Of a DNA stretch of 64,000 nt, positions 1-27,300 are shown piece by piece. Below the pieces are notes generated by a model. It saw nothing but the letters and a program-made list of their open reading frames with translations. It did no database searches and had not been told where the DNA came from. Source of the DNA: a phage; sequence record OZ346219.1; one strand, given 5' to 3'. The position numbers and the translations under genes are program-made. Within the stretch, counting starts at the first letter, position 1. Every line of letters starts with the position of its first letter.

Positions 1-2
1 CA

Positions 3-863
3 ATGCGTGATTATCTTTCTTTGCTGAAAGGTGATTATATCATTGCGATGGCAACTCATGGAGAATTGTTTGCAGATCCGATAAGTGATGTTGTATTTTC
101 TAAGATGGGATCGGTATCATTCCCGAATCACATTTTGTTACAGCAAATGCCTCGTGTATCATATGCAGCAATTTATTCTACTAAAATGGGTAAAATTGTG
201 TGCGAAGGGATGCAAGCAACTCACGGGGAAGGACAAGATTCATCTATACAAATTGAGAAAGTCTATGATACTATAGATGATCTTGCTATAACAGGAACAC
301 CACAACGATTTTTAGATTATCCGGTTGAGTATGTTAGCGAAGATGCCGAACATTTCGAGCTAATACAATGGCCTCGTGATGAGACCAGCGCCCCACTTGA
401 GGATTTTAACATAAAGACAGGTGACAAACTATCAATATCCTTTGAATTGTTCCGTGATAGTGCCGCAGCCGCAGCCAACGTAACAGCGCGTTTCTATCAC
501 AACTACTTCACCGATGGACAATATCAAACTGGTGTTCGATACAATGCCAGCAAAAAAGACCAATGGGAAAAGTTTGAAGCCGTCTATACCGTACCGGAAG
601 GAGTTGATAGTGTAGTAACTGGTTGTATCAGATATCCAACCAACTCCAATGAAGGTATTGTTAAAATTAGAAACATACTAATAACGCCGATCAGTGGAGT
701 CGTCAAAACTACTGGTCCTACTTCATTTGGTGTTAATGGTGTTAGAACAACTCATATTCAGGATAACGGTGATTTTACTAACCCTGTAATGAGTCTTCTT
801 AAACTACCCAGAGATAATAAACACATCACATCCAACAACTTTAAAGAGTTTGATGTTGATTAA
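3..863 (+). CDS. long tail fibre protein, gp35-like (or C-terminus of gp34); 5' end truncated by window edge
   Basis: Partial ORF running in from the left edge, immediately upstream of gp36/gp37 in T4 order; identity inferred from synteny only. Confidence 0.45.
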   Translation: MRDYLSLLKGDYIIAMATHGELFADPISDVVFSKMGSVSFPNHILLQQMPRVSYAAIYSTKMGKIVCEGMQATHGEGQDSSIQIEKVYDTIDDLAITGTPQRFLDYPVEYVSEDAEHFELIQWPRDETSAPLEDFNIKTGDKLSISFELFRDSAAAAANVTARFYHNYFTDGQYQTGVRYNASKKDQWEKFEAVYTVPEGVDSVVTGCIRYPTNSNEGIVKIRNILITPISGVVKTTGPTSFGVNGVRTTHIQDNGDFTNPVMSLLKLPRDNKHITSNNFKEFDVD

Positions 864-1024
864 CATTTTTAACAAGCCGATCCATGTGGTCGGCTTTATT
901 TTTATACAGTTGGTTAAATTGTAACCAAAACGAAGAAAGATCTTTAGAATAATAGAAAATTTGTTTCGGTTAAAAATTAGTCAGTGCCTACGGCACGTCG
1001 CGAAGCGATATTTTGTTAACATTC

Positions 1025-1032
1025 TATAAATA
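1025..1032 (+). promoter_or_regulatory. T4-type late promoter (TATAAATA) upstream of gp36
   Basis: Exact TATAAATA at 1025-1032, ~35 nt upstream of the gp36 ATG (1067); matches the T4 late promoter consensus recognised by gp55. Confidence 0.6.
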
Positions 1033-1066
1033 CTCGGAACTATAACTAATTTTTTGAGGTTACTTT

Positions 1067-2557
1067 ATGGCAGATTTGAAATATGGATCTACTGTAGGTG
1101 GATCTCCCATTTGGACGCAAGGAAATTTGACGATCCAGCCAGCGGGGGATCAGCTTTTCTACAAAGGTCATAAAATCTATACCGCTTTTGATAGACCTTC
1201 GGCTACCGATTTTGATGCTGTTAGTGCATCCGAAGGTGGCACATTTCAAAAGCAAGTTCATTTCGAGGAAGGTTTAAGCGTAGGTAGCGCATCGGCTGGA
1301 GAAACCAAAAAGAATGGTATCTTTAAAGGTCAGAGTGACGCTGCTAATTTTGACGGCGTAAGCTGGGGTTTGCATTCATGGAAGTCAATCGGCTTTGTTA
1401 ATGCCCGTGATGGCGTTATTATGGCGTATATTGACACCACAACGGGCGAATTTAAGTCTAAAGGGACTATCGAAGGGACAACCATTAAAGACACAGGTCA
1501 ACGCGTCTATAGCCCTGTTAATAAACCAACGAATAATGATTTGGATTTAGTTTCCCGTCGCGGTGATACTCTCACAGGAACATATAATTTAAACACTGTC
1601 ACTGTTAAACTATCGGTTGATTCGAAATTAATTGCAAGGGAACGTGATTTAATTAATTTTGATGCGACTAAGATCTATTATGGTAACGTTCTTGATACGT
1701 TGGTCTTCCGAAGTAAAGATGAGCCTACCATTTTTGTTAATGGCAAAGAAGGTCGTTTTTATCACACCAACAATAAACCAACTAAAGCCGATGTTGGGCT
1801 AGGCAATGTCACCAATGATGCACAGGTTAAACGTGCTGGTGATATTATGGAAGGTAACTTGCAAGCGCCTAGAATGTTGGCGACAAACGATCCTGCTGGT
1901 CCTAATGAATTGGTTCGTTTGAGCTACTTTGAGAGAAAATCAATGGTAGCAAATCCAACCATCATTGGAAACGTTGATTGGAACACTCTTATTAATCGCG
2001 GTATCTATCGTGTGGAAAATGCTGGATCAGGTACTAATAAACCGTCTGATAGCTATTATAACGGCGTTTTGATGGTATATCGCCCAGAAGATGCTGTTGG
2101 TACTCGTCGAATTGTTCAGGTGTATTATCCTGAATCTATTGACCATCCGATGTGCTGGCGTTCGTGTTCTAATGAATCATGGACTGCATGGAACTATGTA
2201 GATCACCGTAAATTAGCCGATATTCGCTATGTTAACGTCACTGGCGATACCATGACAGGACCGTTAACTGTTCCTGCTGCAAATGGCGTTAGAACAGCTA
2301 AAACTAACTATAACGGGGATAACTGTTATGCGGCGTTAAGCGGTGCTGATGGTACTGCTATGATTCACCGCATTAGTGATATTAAAGGGACCGAAAAGCT
2401 GGGGATCACCCACGACTCAAAGGTCGTGTTTTTCCGTTCTAGAAACAATACTCAAACCGTGGACCGCTATCAGCTTTATCATGAAGGTAATAAACCTACT
2501 CCGGCTGATGTTGGAGCGGTTCCACTTAATGCGGTGATTGATTTTGGTACTTTCTAA
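1067..2557 (+). CDS. gp36: long tail fibre subunit gp36 (496 aa, longer than T4 gp36)
   Basis: N-terminus MADLKYGSTVGGSPIWTQGN... matches recalled T4 gp36 N-terminus; sits between gp35-like and gp37. Confidence 0.75.
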   Translation: MADLKYGSTVGGSPIWTQGNLTIQPAGDQLFYKGHKIYTAFDRPSATDFDAVSASEGGTFQKQVHFEEGLSVGSASAGETKKNGIFKGQSDAANFDGVSWGLHSWKSIGFVNARDGVIMAYIDTTTGEFKSKGTIEGTTIKDTGQRVYSPVNKPTNNDLDLVSRRGDTLTGTYNLNTVTVKLSVDSKLIARERDLINFDATKIYYGNVLDTLVFRSKDEPTIFVNGKEGRFYHTNNKPTKADVGLGNVTNDAQVKRAGDIMEGNLQAPRMLATNDPAGPNELVRLSYFERKSMVANPTIIGNVDWNTLINRGIYRVENAGSGTNKPSDSYYNGVLMVYRPEDAVGTRRIVQVYYPESIDHPMCWRSCSNESWTAWNYVDHRKLADIRYVNVTGDTMTGPLTVPAANGVRTAKTNYNGDNCYAALSGADGTAMIHRISDIKGTEKLGITHDSKVVFFRSRNNTQTVDRYQLYHEGNKPTPADVGAVPLNAVIDFGTF

Positions 2558-2562
2558 TTTTA

Positions 2563-2587
2563 GCGGGGATTATCTCCCCGCTTTTCT
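2563..2587 (+). terminator. stem-loop (GCGGGGA-ttatc-TCCCCGC) followed by TTTTCT after gp36
   Basis: Perfect 7-bp GC-rich inverted repeat directly followed by a T-run, seen in sequence. Confidence 0.55.
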
Positions 2588-2627
2588 AAATAATATTATT
2601 CTAACAACCGTTTAAGGATTTTATAAA

Positions 2628-5564
2628 ATGGCAGATTTAAACAGAATCCAATTTAAACGTACTAGCACGAAAGGTCGTAAACCTGATGCTACTACAATGA
2701 CGCAAGGTGAACTTGCTATCAACCTGCATGATTATTATTTGTTTACAAAAAATGACTCTGGTTCTATTATTAACTTAAGCTGTCCTCCGATCTATGACCG
2801 CGATGTTATCATGGCTGGTAAAGTAAAGGGAGATTATTACATTTTAGGTAAAACCGCCAATTATCTTGAAGATCAGACAGCGAGAGACCTTAACCGTTTT
2901 GGGGCATTCCGTACCAACGGTCTAGATGGATTTTTAGATTTGACCTTGCATGTTCCTCATTCTGGTGGCGTTCAACATGGTCGAGGATTTACTTTCAATT
3001 ATGGACACACAGGACCGCGCGTAGAAACTTATGGATATAATGCACAGGGACAAAAAGCATTTAGTTATAAAATGTATCACGAAGGTGATAAACCAACTCC
3101 AGGAGAATTGAACGTCTATAGCAAACAAGAAGTAGATAGAATGTTTGTTAAGAACGTTAAACTTTCTACAGGTTCTGGTGATATCGTTGAAGGTTATTTT
3201 AAATTAGCGACTGCGATGATTCCACAAGACGGTCGTAGTGTATTTTTTCGTATTCATGGTGGTAACGGATATAACGTTACTGCATACGATCAAGTTGATA
3301 TTGTAGAAATTGTTATTCGCAGTGGAAATAATCGTCCTAAAGGTGTTAACGTTATTGCATACCGCCGAAATACAAACAAAGCATTTGATGTTTTGGCTGT
3401 TAATACTTCTGGTGATAACTATGATATCTACGTGAAATATCAGCGTTGCACTGATAACGTTATTGTTGAATTTGGTAAAAGTGTTGATGTTAATCTGGTA
3501 GTTCATGACGTTCCAGACTTTGTTGTTGATCGTCCTGTTGGCGATAATGTTATTGGCGGTCGCGCGGTAACTCTTTTCAACACCGAAAACAAACGAGGTG
3601 TGTTGAGTTTTGACGATAACACACAAAATAGTTATGATATTGTTCACTTGAGTAATGATAAGGGTACTGGACGAAAATATATTCGTAAATTCCGTAGTAA
3701 CTATAATGAAACGATCTGGCATGAGACGGTTCAAGGTAACGTATATCGTTTAGCTACTGGAACTACCGACGCAAACGAAGTTCTCAAAATTACCGACCGC
3801 ACGTTGCAAACTGGCAATGCTGTTTTTGATGGTGGTAATAATAATGTTCGTTTACATCGTAAAACCGGAAAAAGTAACTATCTGGAATATTATGATGCCC
3901 GTAACGGAGCAAATAAACGTCAGGGATATATTGGCTATGGTGATGCCACAACTAACCAGTTGTCAATTATTAACGAACTCTCCGAAGGTAATAACTCGAT
4001 TTTCTTTAACGAGACAGGTCAAATTTCACTTAACGTAGGAAAGACAAAAATTGTTCATAGCAACGGACAATATATTTCTACTAACGCCGATAACTATCGT
4101 ATAATTTATGGTAATTATGGAACATTCTGGCGAAATGATAGCGTTAAACTTTATCTCATGTCCACTGCCGAAAATGATAAATGGGGTACTTGGAATAGCT
4201 ATCGACCATTCATTTACAACCTAACCAACGGCGATGTTCAATTGGGTGGTGATGCCAATACAACCGTATTGACCTTAGAAGCAGCAAGCAAAATCTCAAG
4301 ATTTGGTGGTTCTGTTTATAGCGGTGGCGATTTTTATAATAAAGGCCAGTATATCATAATGGAAGCTGGGCGCGCTGGATCTCGCGATTATATTCGATTT
4401 AATCATTGGGGTGATAGTAATAATGCCCGTGATAACGTTTTGTACATAGAAGATAGTCAAGGCCGACATTTTAGCACAGAACGTGCGATGGGTACTGGTG
4501 CTCTTAAAGCATACTTCTTAGGCGATCTTGAAGTCGGTGGTAAGTTTACTTGGGGTAAAAATACAGCTACATCTAGCTTTAATATTCGTGCATGGGGTAA
4601 TGATTCCCGTAAACAAGTATTAGAATGCGCGGATGAAAGTGGGTGGCATTGGTACACACAACGAACGGGCGGTCCTGATACTTCTGCAATTGATTTTGCC
4701 ATCAATGGTACTGTTAGGCCTCAAGCAATTCACACTGGCGGTAATATCACGCTTAACGGTGCTGATATTGAATTTAAACGAAGCGGTAACAAGCATTTAT
4801 GGTTTAGAGATCCGAACGGCTTAGAGTTGGGTCTGTTGTACTGCGATGATGCTGGTGTTATGCGTATTCGTGGGGAGAAATCGACCGAAGTATGGAAATT
4901 CTCAGCAAAACAGATTCATCTGGAAACTGGTACTGCCGGAAATGGTGTAGGCTTGCTTCGTGGTGCTGTAGGTGGTGGCGCATGGACTCAATGGCGAGAT
5001 CGTGGCACTGGCTTGCAGGTTGATTGTCAGCAATCTGAAAACTCAGCGCATAACGTATGGAGAGCTACGCATCAAGGAAAATACCACATCGCGGCAATGG
5101 GTGTACACGTTCCTGGTGGTACTATCGGAAATGCTATGGTGCGTATTCACGTACACGATGCAACTTTTGACTTTAGCGCAACTGGTGATTTCCAAGCAGG
5201 TCGTAACGGTAATTTTAACGATGTGTACATTCGTTCTGATGCTCGCCTGAAAATCAATAAGGAAGAGTATAAAGAGAATGCTACCGATAAAGTTAATCGC
5301 TTGACGGTATACACCTATGACAAGGTTAAATCTTTAACTGACCGTACTGTCATTGCTCATGAAGTTGGTATTATTGCTCAGGATCTTGAGAAAGAATTGC
5401 CAGAAGCAGTAAAAACCTCGAAGATCGGCGACGGTGATACACCAGAAGAGATCTTAACAATTTCTAACTCTGCTGTCAACGCTCTTTTAATTAAGGCGTT
5501 TCAGGAAATGAGTGAAGAACTTAAAGCCGTTAAAGCTGAACTAGCGGAACTTAAAAAGAATTAA
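2628..5564 (+). CDS. gp37: long tail fibre distal subunit gp37 (978 aa) with C-terminal intramolecular chaperone (peptidase S74-like) domain
   Basis: N-terminus MADLNRIQFKRTSTKGRKPD...GELAINL matches T4 gp37. C-terminus ...SDARLKINKEEY...AHEVGIIAQDLEKELPEAV...LKAVKAELAELKKN fits the S-D-x-R-L-K autocleaving chaperone domain of endosialidase-type fibres and lacks the T4 HxH needle repeats. Confidence 0.85.
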   Translation: MADLNRIQFKRTSTKGRKPDATTMTQGELAINLHDYYLFTKNDSGSIINLSCPPIYDRDVIMAGKVKGDYYILGKTANYLEDQTARDLNRFGAFRTNGLDGFLDLTLHVPHSGGVQHGRGFTFNYGHTGPRVETYGYNAQGQKAFSYKMYHEGDKPTPGELNVYSKQEVDRMFVKNVKLSTGSGDIVEGYFKLATAMIPQDGRSVFFRIHGGNGYNVTAYDQVDIVEIVIRSGNNRPKGVNVIAYRRNTNKAFDVLAVNTSGDNYDIYVKYQRCTDNVIVEFGKSVDVNLVVHDVPDFVVDRPVGDNVIGGRAVTLFNTENKRGVLSFDDNTQNSYDIVHLSNDKGTGRKYIRKFRSNYNETIWHETVQGNVYRLATGTTDANEVLKITDRTLQTGNAVFDGGNNNVRLHRKTGKSNYLEYYDARNGANKRQGYIGYGDATTNQLSIINELSEGNNSIFFNETGQISLNVGKTKIVHSNGQYISTNADNYRIIYGNYGTFWRNDSVKLYLMSTAENDKWGTWNSYRPFIYNLTNGDVQLGGDANTTVLTLEAASKISRFGGSVYSGGDFYNKGQYIIMEAGRAGSRDYIRFNHWGDSNNARDNVLYIEDSQGRHFSTERAMGTGALKAYFLGDLEVGGKFTWGKNTATSSFNIRAWGNDSRKQVLECADESGWHWYTQRTGGPDTSAIDFAINGTVRPQAIHTGGNITLNGADIEFKRSGNKHLWFRDPNGLELGLLYCDDAGVMRIRGEKSTEVWKFSAKQIHLETGTAGNGVGLLRGAVGGGAWTQWRDRGTGLQVDCQQSENSAHNVWRATHQGKYHIAAMGVHVPGGTIGNAMVRIHVHDATFDFSATGDFQAGRNGNFNDVYIRSDARLKINKEEYKENATDKVNRLTVYTYDKVKSLTDRTVIAHEVGIIAQDLEKELPEAVKTSKIGDGDTPEEILTISNSAVNALLIKAFQEMSEELKAVKAELAELKKN

Positions 5565-20977: not shown

Positions 20978-21646
20978 TTATCCCCTTTGTTTCTTAACTG
21001 AATTTGGATCTGGATTTTCTGGCAAGTCTTCCAGACCCATAGCATAACGTTGTGCATAGATTAGCATAAGAATATCGCGAGCGCAATCATGAATTGCGTC
21101 ATGCGCGATAAATCCGTCTAGCGTACCCATTGGTAACGGGCATTCACACATACCACGATGCATCAATGTACGCTCAATGGCGGTGCGAACATCTCGGATA
21201 TTCCAGAATCGCACAGGTTCAAGGCTGAACGTCTCTCGTGTATTGTGTGCACGGCGGATCATATCAACTAGTAACGGAATATCAAACGCATTACCGCGTG
21301 ACCACATTACGGATTTAACCGGATCTACTCCTACGGCTTCACAGAATGCGTTAAAACGCGCTAAACCTTCTTTAGTTGATACTTCCGTACCATTTGTGAT
21401 TAATTGCTTTCTCATGCCTTCTGAGGTGGTATTCTTCCACCATTCAACCACACCATGATCAAACACCCTTACACCTTTCTGGGAAGGAATATCAAATTTT
21501 ACCAGAAAGGAATTGTCAACCAGTTCTTTAAATGTAGGTGGATTGTGCGGATCTTCTTTAAATCCGATTGCCGCCATATTGATAACCGCCCCATCAGGCG
21601 GATAACCTAAACTTTCAAAGTCAATCATTAAATCCACTGGAAGCAT
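20978..21646 (-). CDS. dexA: exonuclease A (DexA, 3'-5' DEDDh-type)
   Basis: LMIDFESLG, FKLEPVRFWN, GTLDGFIAHDAIHDCARDILM, YAMGLED match recalled T4 DexA; start fixed at the ATG with RBS GGAGGA. Confidence 0.8.
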   Translation of the reverse strand: MLPVDLMIDFESLGYPPDGAVINMAAIGFKEDPHNPPTFKELVDNSFLVKFDIPSQKGVRVFDHGVVEWWKNTTSEGMRKQLITNGTEVSTKEGLARFNAFCEAVGVDPVKSVMWSRGNAFDIPLLVDMIRRAHNTRETFSLEPVRFWNIRDVRTAIERTLMHRGMCECPLPMGTLDGFIAHDAIHDCARDILMLIYAQRYAMGLEDLPENPDPNSVKKQRG

Positions 21647-21647
21647 T

Positions 21648-21890
21648 TTAAATATCCTCCGCGATATGCCGGAACAACTCCAGATCGTTTTTATCCAGAA
21701 TGAAACCGCTACAATCAATAATCCCGTTACCGTAATTATCGGTTAACAGTCGTTCCGTTGCCATGTATGCGCGTACTTTGTTGTTAAAATTCATTACATG
21801 TTGTGCATAGTCACAATGAATCTTTTGACGGTTCCACGCGACAATTGATTGTAGATGTATTACATTAGCCACATTATTAATAACAACCAT
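21648..21890 (-). CDS. hypothetical protein (80 aa)
   Basis: Track ORF between dexA and dda. Confidence 0.4.
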   Translation of the reverse strand: MVVINNVANVIHLQSIVAWNRQKIHCDYAQHVMNFNNKVRAYMATERLLTDNYGNGIIDCSGFILDKNDLELFRHIAEDI

Positions 21891-22069
21891 ATCAAAACCC
21901 TCGCTTAGTGAAATGCTCGATCATTTTATTGATACATGCAGCTTCACTATCGCCGGACACGTTCCAGCCGTATAGACCCCATCTAAAGCACATGGTAACA
22001 GTTCCATTGTGACGGCTTACCGTCACATCATTAAATTCTGGGATACTTCGCATAATCATAATAATTTCC

Positions 22070-23461
22070 TCAAATATAGTCTACTCGATACCGCGCACGG
22101 GTAACACCCACATATAATAACTGCATTGCCAATTCAAAGTCAACATTGTCTGTACACATGCAAGGAGTATACAGGAACACGCGGTCTACGCTGATCCCTT
22201 GTGACTTATGAATAGTGCAAGCTGGTAATGCTTTTACATTTAAAAACATACGTTTCATCGTCCAGAAAGAGTCCCAATCTGGTTTAAATTTTGGATTCTC
22301 TTTCTTCATTTCGCGATAATGTCCGGCGACCGTATTCAGATAGATAGAGAAAATGTTCTTCTGACGTTGTTCTGTCAGAATGTTGATTTCTACCAAATCC
22401 GGTTTATCTGTAGTGATTCCGACTGCATCTAAACCGACTTTCTGATTTAGGATTTCTTTGTCTTCGTCATCATCGACGCTTTCCACTTTCAGAGTATAGC
22501 CTAAAACTGGTTGCGGATCTACCCCCGTGCAACGTAATGTAAATTCACGCGGTATAACCTCTTTAACTCGGATCATCTCGCCATTGTTAAAAATAACATT
22601 GGGAATCTTCTTTCCGCGTTCATCTCGCAGATATTCGATTAACGGTTCCTGAGTAACCAGAATTTCATCTACAATCACTGGTTCATCGGTGTTATAAACG
22701 CGCTTGCGCACAATTTCATTGAGTTTTTCGACGCTCTTGTTAGTGTAAGCCAGAATACGGTTTTCTAGAAGGTCTTCCGGCGTTTTAACTGTTTCGAAAT
22801 AATGCTTCATAAACTCCGGCAGAGTTGAGCTATGGAATACACCCTCGTTGCCGCACTGCTTTTCGAATACCCATTTACCATTACGGACAGCGGTCGCCAC
22901 ATCAATGATCGGTGCATTAGATCGTTTAATTTCTGTCAACTCCACGTTTTGAAAATTTTCGTCCGTGAAGAAAGGAGAAATTGACGTTGCACCGCTCGGA
23001 TCAACTGGTCGTAACTGGTGTGGATCGCCAACTGCAATAACAACAATTCGACCATTGATACTCTTCATGAGAATATCAAATAGTTTCTTATCGACCATAC
23101 TCGCTTCATCAACAATGATGATCTGAACATCATCTAGCTTAGGAGTATCTTTTTGCTCAAATACTTGAGTATCTTCATAGTTGGTCGGGTTAAGACGCAA
23201 TAAAGCATGTAAAGTAAATGCTTGACGACCTACCGCTTTACTCAAAACTTTTTTAGCCTGGTGGGTAGGCGTTGCCAAAACCACACCAGTTACACCACGG
23301 CGGACCATTTCCTGAACAATGAATTTCATCATTGCGGTTTTACCAGTACCCGCCGCACCACGGACAGTTGTATGCTTCTTTTGTTCAATGCGTTTCATTA
23401 GAACATCAAAAGCATGTTTTTGTCCGTCTGTCAACATATCGAAAGTTAATACTCTGCTCAT
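22070..23461 (-). CDS. dda: Dda DNA helicase (SF1)
   Basis: LTDGQKHAFDVLMK...GAAGTGKT...ATPTHQAKKVLSK...IIIVDEASM...GDPHQLRPV matches recalled T4 Dda and SF1 helicase motifs. Confidence 0.85.
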   Translation of the reverse strand: MSRVLTFDMLTDGQKHAFDVLMKRIEQKKHTTVRGAAGTGKTAMMKFIVQEMVRRGVTGVVLATPTHQAKKVLSKAVGRQAFTLHALLRLNPTNYEDTQVFEQKDTPKLDDVQIIIVDEASMVDKKLFDILMKSINGRIVVIAVGDPHQLRPVDPSGATSISPFFTDENFQNVELTEIKRSNAPIIDVATAVRNGKWVFEKQCGNEGVFHSSTLPEFMKHYFETVKTPEDLLENRILAYTNKSVEKLNEIVRKRVYNTDEPVIVDEILVTQEPLIEYLRDERGKKIPNVIFNNGEMIRVKEVIPREFTLRCTGVDPQPVLGYTLKVESVDDDEDKEILNQKVGLDAVGITTDKPDLVEINILTEQRQKNIFSIYLNTVAGHYREMKKENPKFKPDWDSFWTMKRMFLNVKALPACTIHKSQGISVDRVFLYTPCMCTDNVDFELAMQLLYVGVTRARYRVDYI

Positions 23462-23775
23462 TATCCTAAAATCCTCACCTTGCGAACACAGATAGTATTG
23501 AGTTCTCGCCGTACCCGTTCTTTTTCATATTCAGGAATTTTATATTCGATACCATCCCGAACAATTTCAGAAGACCGGATTATACCAAATTTTCGTTTAG
23601 GCACAACCTTGTATTTCGGTTCACCTGCCAATAGACTCTCACAATAATCTATCTGATCACACATTGACGCTAACGCAGCATCATGTGTTTCGCAAGTTAG
23701 GACGCGACCTTTCGCGTCCACTGAGTATTGAAAGAATCCGTCTTTATCACGATAACATACAGCAAATACATGCAT
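23461..23775 (-). CDS. hypothetical protein (104 aa; positional equivalent of T4 dda.1)
   Basis: Track ORF, ATG overlaps the upstream stop. Confidence 0.4.
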   Translation of the reverse strand: MHVFAVCYRDKDGFFQYSVDAKGRVLTCETHDAALASMCDQIDYCESLLAGEPKYKVVPKRKFGIIRSSEIVRDGIEYKIPEYEKERVRRELNTICVRKVRILG

Positions 23776-24530
23776 TATAAACCTACCTTAGCTTTCATCA
23801 ATTCAATCCACGACGCATCAATCGGAAGCCCGTATTTCACGCGTTCTTTTTGTGCTGGCGTTAAGTTCTCATACTTAGAAAGAGATTCAATCAAAACGCT
23901 GGTATATTTTAGCACGATTTCGGTATTGTTTGCAATAGCCTTTAGTTTTTCCTCTTTCTTGTTGATTTCGCTAAGGGCTTGCTTGAGATCTGCAATTTTC
24001 TGATAACGTTCTTCCATACGGAAGAGAGTATTTTTAATCGCTCGCTCTGCTGCCTCTGCTTTCTCCGGTTCGTTGTGCTTTTTGTGGCGCTCGATTGCTA
24101 ATTTCTTTTCTTCGATTGCCATTTCCTGATTTTTGATGCGATTCTCGTTAAGTTCGATCCACTCGATGTACTTCGCACGTAGGGCAATTTCATCATCAGA
24201 AAGTTTACCGTTAGTTCCTAGTTCCTGGATCTCTTTAAGAGATTCGATAGTGTGATTGCCACGGAAAGAATTGTATTTCAGTTTAACCGGAATTACATTG
24301 CCATCAACATATCCCAGATTGCAATCAATGCGCTCTAAGGAGAGTCCGTCATCACCTTCACCGAAAGCCTCACCTGAATAGGCACAATGAGTCTGGCGGT
24401 AAATGTTACGAACAGTGACTAAGCTCATAGAGAAGTCTTTGTTGCGACGTGAAGCACCAGCCATGATAGAGTTCAGCCGGAAAACAACCAGCGCCAATTC
24501 TTCGTTAGATTTAAAAGCAAACAGTTTCAT
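23775..24530 (-). CDS. hypothetical protein (251 aa), coiled-coil rich; possibly Srd-like by position
   Basis: Position after dda matches T4 srd; the long Lys/Glu-rich helical region was not matched to any sequence I can recall. Confidence 0.3.
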   Translation of the reverse strand: MKLFAFKSNEELALVVFRLNSIMAGASRRNKDFSMSLVTVRNIYRQTHCAYSGEAFGEGDDGLSLERIDCNLGYVDGNVIPVKLKYNSFRGNHTIESLKEIQELGTNGKLSDDEIALRAKYIEWIELNENRIKNQEMAIEEKKLAIERHKKHNEPEKAEAAERAIKNTLFRMEERYQKIADLKQALSEINKKEEKLKAIANNTEIVLKYTSVLIESLSKYENLTPAQKERVKYGLPIDASWIELMKAKVGL

Positions 24531-24591
24531 AATTGATTCTCCTTAGTTGGCATGTGTGTATTATTGTCTATCTGGTTTGTGCTGTCAACAC

Positions 24592-25095
24592 TTAAATTAA
24601 AGAAAATTTGTAAATCTCTATCAGATCGCCATTACACGCGTAAACTTCCTCGATCTCATCAAGGATCATGGTCGTCCCTGTCTTGTATATGCACTCGCGC
24701 TCATCTGCCAACATAGCATACAAAGACAGTCGAGTAGTCGGATTGTCATACTCTTTAGACACCACTCGGTCAATAGCATGTTCGTAATAATTCATGCAAG
24801 GCTTGGTAGGTTTTATTGCAATAATCTTTCCTGTTGCATAAACATCGGTTGCAAAGTCCTCTGCTGTTGATTGCAGTGGCGTAAAGCTCATAGGACGCTC
24901 TACAACGAAAGAATCACCCACAATTAAGGTATCCAGCTTACGGCCTTCTCTTTTTCTCACACCGCGATACAAGGCTTCATGATGCACTAACCGCTCAGTC
25001 TTTTCAATCAATCCATTAAGGATCGACATATCGATATTTTCTTTAGAGTTCATCACTTCATCAATGATGTTAAGTTCTTCTGGTGTAAATTGCAT
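24592..25095 (-). CDS. putative ADP-ribosyltransferase (ModA/ModB-like, 167 aa)
   Basis: Position corresponds to T4 modA/modB; candidate R-S-E triad (YRGVRK, MSFT, DERE); motif-level only. Confidence 0.4.
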   Translation of the reverse strand: MQFTPEELNIIDEVMNSKENIDMSILNGLIEKTERLVHHEALYRGVRKREGRKLDTLIVGDSFVVERPMSFTPLQSTAEDFATDVYATGKIIAIKPTKPCMNYYEHAIDRVVSKEYDNPTTRLSLYAMLADERECIYKTGTTMILDEIEEVYACNGDLIEIYKFSLI

Positions 25096-25128
25096 AATAA
25101 AAAAGCCTCCAATCTTTCGACGGGAGGC
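25096..25128 (-). terminator. stem-loop (GCCTCC-12 nt-GGAGGC) plus U-run between gp56 and the downstream gene
   Basis: 6-bp GC stem followed on the minus strand by TTTTTTATT and then the ATG of 24592-25095. Confidence 0.5.
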
Positions 25129-25157
25129 ATAATAAAACCATTATAGAGTAGTGTCAA
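25129..25157 (-). promoter_or_regulatory. early promoter TTGACA-17-TATTAT immediately upstream of the terminator hairpin
   Basis: Minus strand: TTGACActactctataatggtttTATTATgcctccc; predicted start site falls inside the hairpin's left arm. Confidence 0.45.
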
Positions 25158-25164
25158 CTAATTT

Positions 25165-25689
25165 TTAGTAGCCGCGTTCTTGACGGGCGAAGTTTTCAGC
25201 ATTTTTCAGATAGTACAGAATAAAGAGTTCTTGAGCGTCAATACCCAGCGGGATCATCTTTGACAGAATGAAGTGGATCGCGTCCACAAATTCAAATTTC
25301 ACTTCAAGCTGATCTTCCGGTGACAGTTCAGAGAATTTACGCGCTCGCGCTTCTCCGTGGTTCTTTTTCCACATTTTCCAGATTGCACTTGCATCTTTAC
25401 CATTGGACATTCCACCCAGCGATGTGTAAAGCTCTCGTGTTTCGTCTGCGATAGCGTCATCCATCCGTTGCATCCAATCCAGCATTTCACCGCAAGTCTC
25501 TAGCTTAGTTGGATTTGGGACCCAATCAAATTTTTCGGATAATGCAACCTGCAAACCAGTTTGCATTTCGAGCATCACCTGAAACGGATCTTTACCTTCT
25601 GCAATCGCGTGATGATATGCGGCGATAGCCGCGTTAATATCTTTTTCGTTAACCAGACCAGCACAAGAATTAAATTCTGACATATTCAC
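25165..25689 (-). CDS. gp56: dCTP pyrophosphatase gp56 (MazG-like)
   Basis: GKDPFQVMLEMQ, KLETCGE, SPEDQLEVKFEFVDAIHFIL, LYYLKNAENFARQERGY match recalled T4 gp56. Confidence 0.75.
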   Translation of the reverse strand: MNMSEFNSCAGLVNEKDINAAIAAYHHAIAEGKDPFQVMLEMQTGLQVALSEKFDWVPNPTKLETCGEMLDWMQRMDDAIADETRELYTSLGGMSNGKDASAIWKMWKKNHGEARARKFSELSPEDQLEVKFEFVDAIHFILSKMIPLGIDAQELFILYYLKNAENFARQERGY

Positions 25690-25697
25690 CTCATTAA

Positions 25698-26726
25698 TTA
25701 AAATTTACAATATTTCATAAACCGCATTTTAGCCATCAGACCTTGTACGGTGTTCTCTTTGATATATTCCATGATCTGGTCGCGTGTAGCGCCCTCGTCC
25801 TGAATCATGGCGTTAACGTCTTTAGAATGCCACGGGCAACGGTCCCACAAAACAATCTTTTCCCCTGCATTGATAAACTTTTCCAGTCGGTGCATTGTAT
25901 CGGCAGACCGTGGTTCCGCATCAAGTACAAACACTCGCTGATCAGGGAAAGGAATTTCATCTAATCCCAAAGTACCGCCAGTAATTGCACACCCGTTATC
26001 AATAAACAATGAATCGATCGGACCTTCTAAGAAATACACTGGTTTACTCGGATCGGCGCGTTCAAGACCATAGACCTTACTCGCTAACTCATGAGTTTTA
26101 ATCGTCATATATTTGGTCTTTCCGTAGTCCTTTCTCAATGCTCGCCCCTGAATGGATTCTATCTTGTTCTCGCGGTTAAAGATAGGAATCACTAAACGCG
26201 GTTCAGGTTGTGGATTCTTGAAAGTATCAGCCTTAATGTGATTTGCTACCTTTTGCCATTCTCTCGTGAAATACAGAAGATCCCATTTATCGTGGGGAAT
26301 GCAACGATCACTGACATACTTTATTATAGGATGATTAGCCGGAAGAGTATCTAATCTCTCGCAGAAAGGCAATGTTTGCACTTTCTTAATCTCCGGCTTT
26401 TCTACCTTTTTCAGTGGCTTGAACGTGGTGTTCTTGTGGTCTCCTTGTTCCTTCCGTCGTTCCATAAGCCATTCCCTGAATAGGTCTGGCTTATATTGTT
26501 TAAGAAATTCACCTAACGGCTGATTGTAGTTACAGTTGAAACACGATGCGCGTAACGAGTCTTTATAAGTGTAGATTCTGAAACGCGCCATTGTGCTATT
26601 CTTTTTGGAATCTCCGCAGATCGGACATGAGCATACCAATGTAAATGATTGAGTGTGTAGGCGTTTAAAGTTTCTCTCACCATATATCGCCTTCTCTGCA
26701 ATCTCACAATCTGCGTAGTATATCAT
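25698..26726 (-). CDS. gp61: DNA primase gp61
   Basis: 342 aa as in T4; zinc-ribbon CSCPICGDS...CFNCNY, catalytic GPIDSLFIDNGCAITGG, C-terminal MEYIKENTVQGLMAKMR match T4 gp61. Confidence 0.85.
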   Translation of the reverse strand: MIYYADCEIAEKAIYGERNFKRLHTQSFTLVCSCPICGDSKKNSTMARFRIYTYKDSLRASCFNCNYNQPLGEFLKQYKPDLFREWLMERRKEQGDHKNTTFKPLKKVEKPEIKKVQTLPFCERLDTLPANHPIIKYVSDRCIPHDKWDLLYFTREWQKVANHIKADTFKNPQPEPRLVIPIFNRENKIESIQGRALRKDYGKTKYMTIKTHELASKVYGLERADPSKPVYFLEGPIDSLFIDNGCAITGGTLGLDEIPFPDQRVFVLDAEPRSADTMHRLEKFINAGEKIVLWDRCPWHSKDVNAMIQDEGATRDQIMEYIKENTVQGLMAKMRFMKYCKF

Positions 26727-26730
26727 AATA

Positions 26731-27285
26731 TCACCTCTCTTTATATCGTGATGTTCTGGTCTGACTCTTCCATATTCTTCTTATGGTTATCGTGTGCACT
26801 CCGTATATTATAGCAAGTTCTTTTACAGACGCAACACCCTGTTTAGACCTGATCTCTTCTACTTGATGGTCAGTTAACTTTGCGTTTCCGTGTGTTTCTC
26901 CATAGTTTTTGTTCAATCCTTCTTCTTTAGCGTGTATAAGATTTTCTCTTTGTGTTGTCCACTCAAGGCCATACAGATCAAAATCCTTTTTATCACCAAA
27001 TTTGTGATTTACTACAGGGTAGTTGTTTGGATTTGGTATAAATGCTTCTGCTAATGCCCTATGAATATAAACGCCGACGGTCTTTGGCTTGCCCGACTTT
27101 GTTCTGTTGGCGTAATCTCTTATATTACAAGAGACATAACCTTTTGTTATTTTAGTTGATCTGACCTTGCCAGTGGCTTTATTTCTTAGTTTACCATAAG
27201 AACTAATTTCATATTCTGGATACGATACGCCCATATAAACAAGGTCTTTCCATTCTTCTGGATGTTCATCACAATACCGTTTCAT
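26731..27285 (-). CDS. HNH homing endonuclease (NUMOD4-like N-terminus plus HNH_3-like core)
   Basis: W..L..GVSYPEYEISSYGKLRN (NUMOD4-type) and VNHKFGDKKDFDLYGLEWTTQREN (HNH-type) motifs. Confidence 0.7.
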   Translation of the reverse strand: MKRYCDEHPEEWKDLVYMGVSYPEYEISSYGKLRNKATGKVRSTKITKGYVSCNIRDYANRTKSGKPKTVGVYIHRALAEAFIPNPNNYPVVNHKFGDKKDFDLYGLEWTTQRENLIHAKEEGLNKNYGETHGNAKLTDHQVEEIRSKQGVASVKELAIIYGVHTITIRRIWKSQTRTSRYKER

Positions 27286-27300
27286 GATGTTATTAACCTC

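Follow-up and report, generated by a model that had tools for sequence, protein, structure and literature searches.

Two early genes lie beside dda in this phage, in the place that T4 gives to modA, modB and srd. What do they encode, and how far can the functions of their T4 counterparts be carried over to them? We analyzed the locus within its window, the whole stretch of phage DNA of 64,000 nucleotides under study (OZ346219.1), and computed the identity and homology of the two genes, the conserved residues and predicted folds of their products, their promoters and the synteny of the region. The pair very probably represents early genes with which an RB49-type phage takes over its host: mod, for a compact Mod-family ADP-ribosyltransferase (ART) on a separate branch, and srd, for a T4 Srd orthologue that carries a PacI-like domain.

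The mod-srd locus of an RB49-type phage

Both open reading frames named in a preliminary description of this DNA are present on the minus strand, mod at 24592..25095 (167 aa) and srd at 23775..24530 (251 aa), as are all of the motifs quoted from them. The window belongs to Krischvirus (RB49-like phages), with 98.7-99.3% identity to deposited genomes, and the 1.8-kb mod-srd segment shows the same range of identity to RB49, W115, kvi and others, recurring at 95% identity or more in 59 phage records. RB49, W115, kvi and related records annotate the two genes as srd and modB or ADP-ribosylase, labels that RB49 (AY343333) has carried for about twenty years, and the window's Srd and Mod proteins are 99-100% identical to their RB49 counterparts. 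On the minus strand throughout, the genes in the window run 56, mod, srd, dda.1 (Y01A) and dda, compared with 56 ... modB, modA, srd, dda.1, dda in T4; the locus holds a single Mod gene where T4 has two. The mod-srd-dda.1-dda arrangement was kept in all 18 of the loci examined, and homology goes beyond chance for both proteins, with E-values of 6e-74 for Srd against phrog_1400 and 3.7e-20 for Mod against phrog_832 ("RNA polymerase ADP-ribosylase"). Synteny and homology together bear out the earlier proposal that these positions match T4 srd and modA/modB.

The gene pair is already known from annotation, as srd and "modB" in T4-like coliphages of the RB49 type. What is new amounts to two modest refinements: the enzyme cannot properly be called a ModA or a ModB, and the N-terminal part of Srd is a predicted PacI-like domain of nuclease type. 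As found, the pair matters little: both are conserved early genes, already annotated, in a phage genus that is well known. The two refinements would be of use mainly to specialists.

A σ70-type early promoter sits directly upstream of the ATG of each gene. That of mod (25129..25157, minus strand) reads TTGACA-17-TATTAT and that of srd (24560..24588, minus strand) reads TTGACA-17-AATAAT, each matching the consensus at 11 of 12 positions. From these strong promoters mod and srd would each be transcribed independently, immediately after infection. The interval that separates the -10 hexamer from the mod start codon contains a stem-loop, GCCTCC-CGTC-GAAA-GAT-T-GGAGGC followed by a U-run (25099..25128, minus strand), with a centroid hairpin of about -15 kcal/mol that is lost on removal of the 5' arm. 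It is unique within the window, and folding found no stable hairpin downstream of the srd promoter. We regard the stem-loop as a putative terminator or attenuator of read-through from gene 56, predicted also to sequester the mod Shine-Dalgarno sequence GGAGG. Promoter and stem-loop together resemble a promoter-early stem-loop (PeSL) element, a concept described for these phages (PMC2839356). Like the PeSLs of RB49 and phi1, the candidate element joins a σ70-consensus promoter to a stable GC-rich stem-loop and U-run in a short intergenic region, and, as with PeSL cassettes, it is kept in a relative in which the flanking open reading frames have been replaced; its stem is GCCTCC/GGAGGC, whereas the typical PeSL stem is GGGG...CCCC.

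Mod as a predicted R-S-ExE ADP-ribosyltransferase

The preliminary description had read the 167-aa product as an ADP-ribosyltransferase of the modA/modB type with an R-S-E triad in the motifs YRGVRK, MSFT and DERE. These motifs occupy aa 43-48, 69-72 and 131-134, the codons for R44, S70, E132 and E134 were confirmed in the DNA, and the residues are in register with those of T4 ModA and ModB. In an alignment of 11 diverse Mods, both T4 proteins among them, R44, G45, S70, E132 and E134 do not vary. R44-G45 (24961..24966, minus strand), which contains the NAD-binding Arg and is invariant in the alignments, is equivalent to R73-G74 of T4 ModB; R73 is catalytic, and its change to Ala inactivates that enzyme (PMC10468400). 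S70-F71-T72 (24880..24888, minus strand) supplies the S-x-[ST] motif of the R-S-E clade and is identical to the motif of T4 ModB, while ModA has SAS. E132-R133-E134 (24694..24702, minus strand) is the ExE catalytic motif of arginine-specific ARTs, invariant as ExE in the 11-sequence alignment, where ERE stands against EQE in both T4 proteins. The R-S-ExE residues are present in both T4 Mods (PMC10468400).

Homology searches agree with this assignment. A tblastn search with Mod returned 333 phage records, mostly annotated ModA or ModB, with E-values down to 1e-9 for annotated Mods, and in a profile search all database homologues carried PF26816. Pfam and NCBIfam scans of both proteins gave no significant family, the Pfam set being one without PF26816, and a single-sequence search of the PDB with Mod gave no match. 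A Mod profile against PDB sequences yielded a sub-threshold match to XopAI (E=0.076) centered on ExE, suggestive and superseded by the fold search. Because word-index homologue searches returned few sequences (3, 7 and 12 hits), the alignment behind the AlphaFold2 (AF2) model of Mod was shallow, at 13 sequences; the model nonetheless has a pLDDT of 90.7 and a pTM of 0.83. Foldseek of this model against the PDB gave 109 hits at E<=1e-3, to C3/VIP2/Certhrax-type ARTs, and the top 50 were all R-S-E ARTs (Certhrax at 4.6e-7, C3, VIP2, CDTa, Ia, ExoT, HopU1 and XopAI), so that the ART fold looked for by the preliminary description was detected in the model. A Mod-family HMM matched the mod ORF and no second ART within the 64-kb window.

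With homology, aligned catalytic residues and predicted fold in agreement, we classify the 167-aa protein as a Mod-family R-S-ExE ADP-ribosyltransferase, with the activity predicted from these features. Its resemblance to C3 exoenzymes, VIP2, iota Ia and Certhrax (Foldseek probability 1.00, TM up to 0.62) extends to the R, S-T-S-like and ExE/QxE elements of bacterial R-S-E ART toxins, but identity to those toxins is 10-16%, and Mod is smaller and has no toxin delivery domains; unlike them, it would act within the infected cell. Closer at hand, it is 99% identical to RB49 ModB (AAQ15305), and it resembles the T4 ModA/ModB family (PHROG 832, PF26816) in its R-S-ExE residues and predicted C3/VIP2-like fold. 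With RB49 ModB and the T4 family it also has in common an early-gene position beside srd and its own σ70-type promoter. The product would thus be a compact arginine-specific mono-ADP-ribosyltransferase of the R-S-ExE clade, using NAD+ to modify host proteins of transcription, translation or both.

Position of Mod relative to ModA and ModB

Mod is shorter than its T4 relatives, as had been claimed: ModA has 200 aa and ModB 207. No in-frame start codon lies upstream of the mod ATG, and the promoter and stem-loop bound the ORF. Relative to both T4 proteins, Mod is without about 30 N-terminal residues and a loop of 6-12 residues before R122. Its identity to them is about 23-28% (27% to ModB, 23-25% to ModA). 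In a neighbor-joining tree (50 bootstrap replicates), ModA and ModB proteins each form a clade with 100% support, and Krischvirus Mod falls outside both, in a clade of its own.

These results bear on two readings of the protein taken from T4. Under the annotated name, it would be a functional orthologue of T4 ModB that ADP-ribosylates and RNAylates the ribosomal proteins S1 and L2, EF-Tu and trigger factor. This fits the modB annotation in RB49 and many Krischvirus records, the S-F-T motif shared with ModB, an acidic pI like ModB's and an identity marginally nearer to ModB (27%) than to ModA (24-25%). However, a difference of 2 to 3 points is within noise, pI and net charge do not discriminate between ModA-like and ModB-like proteins, and T4 ModA and ModB are themselves 25% identical (PMC10468400), with Krischvirus Mod equally far from each. 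The ModB clade, which includes the 202- to 204-aa proteins of other T4-like genera, excludes Krischvirus Mod at 100% bootstrap, and the N-terminal segment and loop that Mod lacks are present in all members of that clade. We consider ModB function unlikely on these grounds. It is likewise improbable that Mod is a ModA-like sole enzyme that ADP-ribosylates Arg265 of the RNA polymerase α subunit and so shuts down UP-element-dependent early and host transcription. The gene does lie directly upstream of srd, as T4 modA does, its ExE motif is of the Arg-specific type, and the AT-rich regions upstream of RB49-type early promoters (PMC2839356) would make modification of the α-CTD regulatory. Gene position is nevertheless a poor guide, the srd-proximal paralogue of the L007-L012 phages being in the ModB clade, and Mod, whose lowest identity is to ModA, is kept out of the ModA clade at the same full bootstrap value.

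The reading we prefer is that Mod represents a third or fourth branch within its family, specific to this lineage and probably orthologous to neither T4 ModA nor T4 ModB, with a target or targets that would not be readable from T4. Since the protein lies outside both clades, the "modB" label, and any target taken from it, is unsupported by the sequence comparisons. With identity of only 24-28% and with the N-terminal helix region and the loop absent, activity and substrate range could differ substantially from those of the T4 enzymes; the earlier suggestion of a short variant with a different specificity is compatible with the separate clade.

Srd and its predicted PacI-like N-terminal domain

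The identity of the 251-aa ORF as srd, proposed from its position, agrees with its phrog_1400 match (spanning residues 8-248), with an alignment to T4 Srd that is collinear from end to end (32-36% identity), and with synteny, and by these comparisons the protein is an Srd orthologue. Against RB49 Srd (AAQ15304), identity is 100% in the alignment and 99.6% by BLASTP. Like T4 Srd (NP_049634), it lies between mod and dda.1 and has three parts: a predicted PacI-like ββα (His-Me-finger) domain comes first, a long hairpin of helices follows, and a short segment at the C-terminus, also conserved, completes the protein. Its AF2 model has a pLDDT of 93.6. The "long coiled coil" of the preliminary description is helical as stated, but it is modeled as an antiparallel hairpin at aa 112-221 (23868..24197, minus strand), formed with high confidence by helices 112-151 and 155-221; this region is poorly conserved relative to T4 Srd, with indels. 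A single-sequence PDB search with Srd gave coiled-coil noise only. The C-terminal segment, aa 222-251 (23778..23867, minus strand), has the motif Y-x-N-L-[ST]...K...K-x-G-x-P, common to T4 Srd and longer Srd-like proteins.

The N-terminal domain, aa 1-105 (24216..24530, minus strand), belongs to an uncurated family for which no Pfam or NCBIfam model was found. It shares with T4 Srd the motif CAYSGE...LSLER.D.N.GY..GNVI.VK.KYN.FR, and its own elements HCAYSGEAF and ERIDCNLGYVDGNVIPV map to aa 48-56 and 66-82. PHROG HNH and endonuclease families were hit with E-values down to 2.7e-12, and the closest solved relative of the domain was the HNH restriction enzyme PacI, matched by hmmsearch with E=0.0011 over PacI residues 28-120. 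PacI was again the top hit of an independent profile (E=0.028), and hhalign of the domain against PacI gave a probability of 94.5% (E=8e-8). By comparison, the control, the canonical HNH_3 homing endonuclease of the same window, scored 1.1% by hhalign, with no relationship detectable. Two structure searches with the full-length Srd model returned generic helical-hairpin matches only. On sequence profiles, then, we assign the domain as a predicted PacI-like His-Me-finger. The predicted ββα core, aa 63-90 (24261..24344, minus strand), would consist of β1 (LSLER), an Ω-loop with G73-Y74, β2 (VIPVK) and a helix with N87, by the secondary structure of the AF2 model, and it aligns with D92-R93, Y100, N104 and N113 of PacI; the codons for R67, Y74 and N87 were confirmed in the DNA.

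In PacI, a Tyr in the Ω-loop replaces the catalytic His, and an Asp and an Asn are metal ligands (PMC5714182, PMC4081073). The Srd domain follows PacI (PDB 3LDY/3M7K, His-Me-finger group 20 of Jablonska et al. 2017) in the motif D/E-R-x-D...G-Y...N...N-x-x-K/R, in an Arg (R67) at the canonical His position, in the Tyr of the Ω-loop and in an N-terminal helical region ahead of a C-x-Y-[CS]-G element. Y74 and N87 are invariant, and position 66 is Glu or Asp. It differs from PacI in its Asp-to-Glu change, in its fusion to a long helical hairpin, in having no known DNA-cleavage role, and in retaining, of the four aligned zinc Cys, only C49 (PacI C66, C109 and C112 become S52, K83 and Y86). A zinc-finger reading of the Cys/His segment was considered and rejected, since conservation does not extend to H48 or C70 and the PacI zinc Cys are replaced at three of four positions; the Cys/His motif noted earlier is present in the N-terminal segment, but with only C49 conserved it does not form a metal site, and the segment is assigned instead to the predicted ββα core of the PacI-like domain.

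The family defined by this domain comprises at least 388 cluster representatives at E<=1e-3, phage-dominated and far more numerous than group 20 (fewer than 100 members reported); in these proteins the domain occurs stand-alone, fused or in tandem. Its invariant residues are C49, R67, G73, Y74, N78 and N87. The genomic context of two distant members was phage-like and otherwise uninformative.

Possible functions of Srd

T4 Srd, according to the accounts in PMC4980113 and PMC13232886 (citing Qi 2015), binds the N-terminal half of RNase E and stimulates host mRNA decay. By analogy, the protein described here would bind host RNase E, at the catalytic N-terminal half of that enzyme, and speed the decay of host mRNA. 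Since identity between the two Srd proteins is only 32-36%, conserved RNase E binding in the RB49 lineage is an extrapolation. The PacI-like domain would most likely serve in binding nucleic acid or a partner, rather than in cleavage. We infer these roles, like the enzymatic activity and targets of Mod, from the features computed above.

Two other functions have to be weighed against this one. The database name makes Srd an anti-sigma factor or a decoy of σ70/σS, and all that speaks for it is the name of the PHROG family and a historical annotation, which reads "postulated decoy of sigma factors RpoD and RpoS". Srd had no sigma-factor Pfam domain even at E<=1 and drew no sigma chain in a PDB sequence search at E<=10, its predicted ββα domain and hairpin are unlike the σ70 regions, and the experimental work, as cited in the same two papers, attributes its effect to RNase E; we regard this function as highly implausible. 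A more serious competitor holds that the N-terminal domain is an active PacI-type nuclease, Tyr-dependent and one-metal, that cuts host RNA or DNA, with RNase E dependence only part of the story. The equivalents of the PacI catalytic positions, E/D66, R67, D69, G73-Y74, N78 and N87, are all conserved at 90% or more, both in a set of 89 Srd-like proteins and in the larger family around them, a degree of conservation that would be unusual for a decayed active site, and the match to PHROG HNH and endonuclease families points the same way. Against it, the adjoining zinc site keeps a single one of its four Cys in Srd, the metal-ligand Asp is replaced by Glu in the Srd branch, and the cited accounts attribute the T4 Srd effect to stimulation of bound RNase E; the conserved residues, moreover, might have a structural role or take part in binding instead of catalysis. 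We judge an active nuclease quite unlikely, and continue to favor a binding role for the domain.

Significance

Srd and a large uncurated phage family may carry a PacI-type domain with an intact Tyr-for-His constellation (E/D66, R67, Y74, N78 and N87), and, separately, the compact RB49-type Mod may have a target spectrum distinct from those of T4 ModA and ModB; we put this forward as a possibility, and a somewhat doubtful one. The "ModB" name has been propagated through Krischvirus genomes, and since phylogeny does not support it, to assume RNAylation or S1 targeting in these phages would be unsafe. As a naturally minimal Mod ART, the 167-aa protein could help to define the elements that set substrate choice. 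For Srd, nothing in the sequence supports the name "anti-sigma factor". If its PacI-type domain is functional, the protein might nick or cut host nucleic acid on its own, or it might use a nuclease-derived nucleic-acid-binding module to deliver host mRNAs to RNase E. A phage activator of RNase E that is at present a black box would, if either is true, gain a structural mechanism, and the PacI-like domain offers residues for mutation (Y74, E66, N87 and R67) in dissecting how Srd stimulates RNase E.

Gene order and provenance of the locus

Both ORFs of the preliminary description proved to be where it had placed them, at 24592-25095 on the minus strand (167 aa) and at 23775-24530 on the minus strand (251 aa), and the codons of key residues were verified on the window DNA. 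Minus-strand gene order is gene 61 primase, gene 56 (a MazG-type NTP pyrophosphatase), the 167-aa ORF, the 251-aa ORF, a Y01A/dda.1 homologue and the Dda helicase. This is the T4 order 56 ... modB-modA-srd-dda.1-dda, and the suggested positional match to T4 srd and modA/modB therefore holds.

The 1.8-kb segment carrying the two genes is matched at ≥95% identity by 59 phage records, all of them RB49-like coliphages (Krischvirus), with the closest 99.0-99.3% identical. The RB49 record AY343333 labels the genes "srd, putative anti-sigma factor" and "modB, ModB ADP-ribosylase," and identity between the window proteins and their RB49 counterparts is 99-100%. The observation therefore rediscovers genes that the genus's reference phage already has annotated; it is confirmed and its interpretation supported. 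Between primase gene 61 and the homologue of RB49 ORF017c, the window also carries a segment of ~550 bp that is missing from RB49 and holds a 184-aa homing-endonuclease ORF with NUMOD4 and HNH_3 domains (26731-27290, minus strand), probably a mobile endonuclease insertion.

A predicted ADP-ribosyltransferase outside the ModA and ModB clades

PHROG 832, the RNA polymerase ADP-ribosylase family, is matched by the 167-aa protein (E=3.7e-20), and tblastn with this protein hit 333 phage records, in which the non-Krischvirus matches were 27-34% identical and mostly labelled ModA, ModB or ADP-ribosylase. The motifs first read from it are all present (YRGVRK at 43-48, MSFT at 69-72, DERE at 131-134), and the R-S-E triad proposed from them is borne out by alignments with T4 ModA (200 aa), T4 ModB (207 aa) and paralogues of other T4-like genera, in which R44-G45, S70, E132 and E134 are invariant. 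These residues coincide with the R-S-ExE motif, whose R73 is required for T4 ModB activity (PMC10468400). A confident AlphaFold2 model (pLDDT 90.7, pTM 0.83), built on 13 sequences, has an ADP-ribosyltransferase (ART) fold: Foldseek against the PDB gave 109 ART-type matches at E≤1e-3, and the best 50 of these were all R-S-E-clade ARTs, among them Certhrax (4.6e-7), C3 exoenzymes, VIP2, CDTa, iota Ia, ExoT, HopU1 and XopAI. Its ExE motif, instead of QxE, suggests arginine specificity (C3 versus iota/VIP2-type enzymes). On sequence and model, the protein is a predicted ADP-ribosyltransferase, and the lack of an ART fold, which the preliminary description counted towards refutation, was not observed.

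Whether it deserves the name ModB is another matter. The protein is 24-25% identical to T4 ModA and 26-27% to T4 ModB, which are themselves 25% identical to each other (PMC10468400). Neighbour-joining analysis of 20 Mod proteins (179 columns, 50 bootstraps) gave 100% support to a ModA clade and to a ModB clade, the latter taking in 202-204-aa proteins from other genera; the Krischvirus proteins fell outside both in a clade of their own, also at 100%. This clade is weakly (62%) sister to a fourth one, formed by the 189-aa upstream paralogue of the T4-like phages L007-L012 (loci from IMG/VR). The protein is indeed shorter than T4 ModA and ModB, as originally described, and is missing ~30 residues at the N terminus as well as a loop of 6-12 residues before R122, both present in all other clades; with the intergenic space taken up by a promoter and a stem-loop, there is no start codon further upstream. 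The 167-aa protein is thus not demonstrably ModB, and the inherited name would offer no basis for assuming targeting of S1, L2 or EF-Tu, or RNAylation. Given its tree placement and shortened form, it is a reasonable guess that this variant might have a specificity of its own.

The L007-L012 phages, like T4, have two Mod genes upstream of srd (2956-3525 and 3580-4194 in locus coordinates), but these are not the ModB/ModA pair of T4: the 204-aa protein encoded next to srd falls in the ModB clade, and the one encoded farther away, of 189 aa, in the separate fourth clade. The Mod family thus comprises at least four lineages, and the type of a Mod protein cannot be told from where its gene lies.

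Promoters, a stem-loop and divergence of mod

Directly upstream of mod and srd lie near-consensus σ70 promoters (11/12 positions each; 25157-25129 and 24588-24560, minus strand), which would fit immediate-early expression of both genes. The mod promoter is part of a composite element of promoter, GC-rich stem-loop and U-run (25096-25164, minus strand) that directly abuts the mod start codon. Its hairpin (25128-25105, minus strand; about -15 kcal/mol), followed by the U-run, sits between the -10 hexamer, which adjoins its 5' arm, and the ATG; the GGAGG Shine-Dalgarno sequence lies within the hairpin. A transcript starting ~7 nt past the -10 was computed to lack the 5' arm and to form no hairpin. 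From this we infer that in read-through RNA from gene 56 the hairpin would terminate transcription or mask mod translation, and that RNA from mod's own promoter would be open for translation. The arrangement agrees with that of the published promoter-early stem-loop (PeSL) cassettes of RB49 and phi1 (PMC2839356).

A 4.3-kb metagenomic relative, L005, is collinear over positions 1-4301 with window 21595-25898. Nucleotide identity to the window is 70.4% in mod and 72.6% in gene 56, 94-95% in the two flanking intergenic regulatory regions, and 90-96% in srd, dda.1 and dda. The mosaic points to an exchange of cassettes at regulatory elements that are themselves conserved, a process proposed for PeSLs; by this comparison mod is putatively a gene of fast turnover, and srd a conserved gene. 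The window's "gene 56 dCTPase" (25165-25689, minus strand), which like mod is strongly diverged in L005, is a MazG/dUTPase_2-type NTP pyrophosphohydrolase (phrog_173, E=5e-37; PF08761, E=3e-5).

A probable PacI-like domain in Srd

The 251-aa protein matches PHROG 1400 (Srd) over residues 8-248 (E=6e-74) and aligns collinearly with T4 Srd (36% identity), and srd adjoins one or more mod genes in every T4-like locus examined; by homology, the protein is Srd. Two papers (PMC4980113; PMC13232886), each with reference to Qi et al. 2015, describe T4 Srd as a protein that binds RNase E through the latter's catalytic N-terminal half and stimulates host mRNA degradation. The label "anti-sigma factor" or "sigma decoy" is unsupported, with no sigma Pfam domain at E≤1 and no sigma chain in PDB searches. 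A confident AlphaFold2 model (pLDDT 93.6; 89 sequences) divides the protein into an α/β N-domain (aa 1-105), a hairpin of two antiparallel helices (H112-151, H155-221) and, towards the C terminus, short helices.

The N-domain (24216-24530, minus strand) belongs to a large family: searched exhaustively with HMMER, its aa 1-100 recovered 388 representatives (50% clustering) at E≤1e-3. It occurs at the N terminus of Srd-like proteins, as stand-alone ~100-aa proteins, at C termini and in two to three tandem copies, mostly in metagenomic, phage-like contexts. Pfam and NCBIfam hold no model for it, and nearly all members are without a name in public sources. Members share the pattern C-x-Y-[ST]-G ... 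[ST]-[LFI]-[ED]-R-[IVL]-D-x3-G-Y-x2-G-N-V ... N-x2-[KR], with C49, R67, G73, Y74, N78 and N87 invariant. The Cys/His-containing segment initially pointed out is present (HCAYSGEAF at 48-56, ERIDCNLGYVDGNVIPV at 66-82), but H48 and C70 are not conserved in the family, so it is not a Cys/His metal site.

A first hint of its relationships came from unforeseen matches of the N-terminal region to PHROG HNH/endonuclease families (phrog_3118, 2.7e-12; phrog_3322, 1.2e-10; endonuclease VII phrog_1035, 1.4e-4). The best PDB sequence for a domain-only profile was PacI (3LDY/3M7K; E=0.0011, PacI residues 28-120), and a second profile, built from distant non-Srd members only, again placed PacI first (E=0.028), followed by another HNH enzyme. 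In hhalign, PacI scored 94.5% probability and a canonical HNH_3 endonuclease, as control, 1.1%. Among His-Me-finger nucleases, PacI typifies the small "group 20", as its reference member; in this group the catalytic His is absent, an Ω-loop tyrosine replaces it, and one Asp and one Asn bind a single metal ion (PMC5714182; PMC4081073). With PacI numbers counted by us along the alignment over PacI residues 28-120, PacI D92-R93, D95, G99-Y100, N104, N113 and K116 correspond to Srd E66-R67, D69, G73-Y74, N78, N87 and R90. Secondary structure in the Srd model (β63-67, loop, β79-83, α84-90) is compatible with a ββα core; two structure searches with the full-length model were dominated by helical-hairpin matches. 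None of the papers in the literature collection searched connects Srd with HNH or PacI. Together, the profiles make homology of the N-domain to PacI probable.

Such homology could mean that the domain still cuts nucleic acid, and the aligned positions include the tyrosine and asparagines of the invariant set. In the alignment, however, Srd retains one of the four cysteines of the PacI zinc site (C63, C66, C109 and C112), the first, as C49. With the zinc site lost and an RNase E-dependent mechanism reported for T4, cutting is unlikely, and the N-domain is more likely a binding module.

What is worth keeping from this analysis is the demotion of the inherited names "ModB" and "anti-sigma factor," together with a PacI-like assignment of the Srd N-domain that yields testable residues. 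If borne out, the boldest reading left standing, in which a phage protein that activates RNase E carries a working PacI-type module and a minimal Mod ART has targets of its own, would merit moderate interest.
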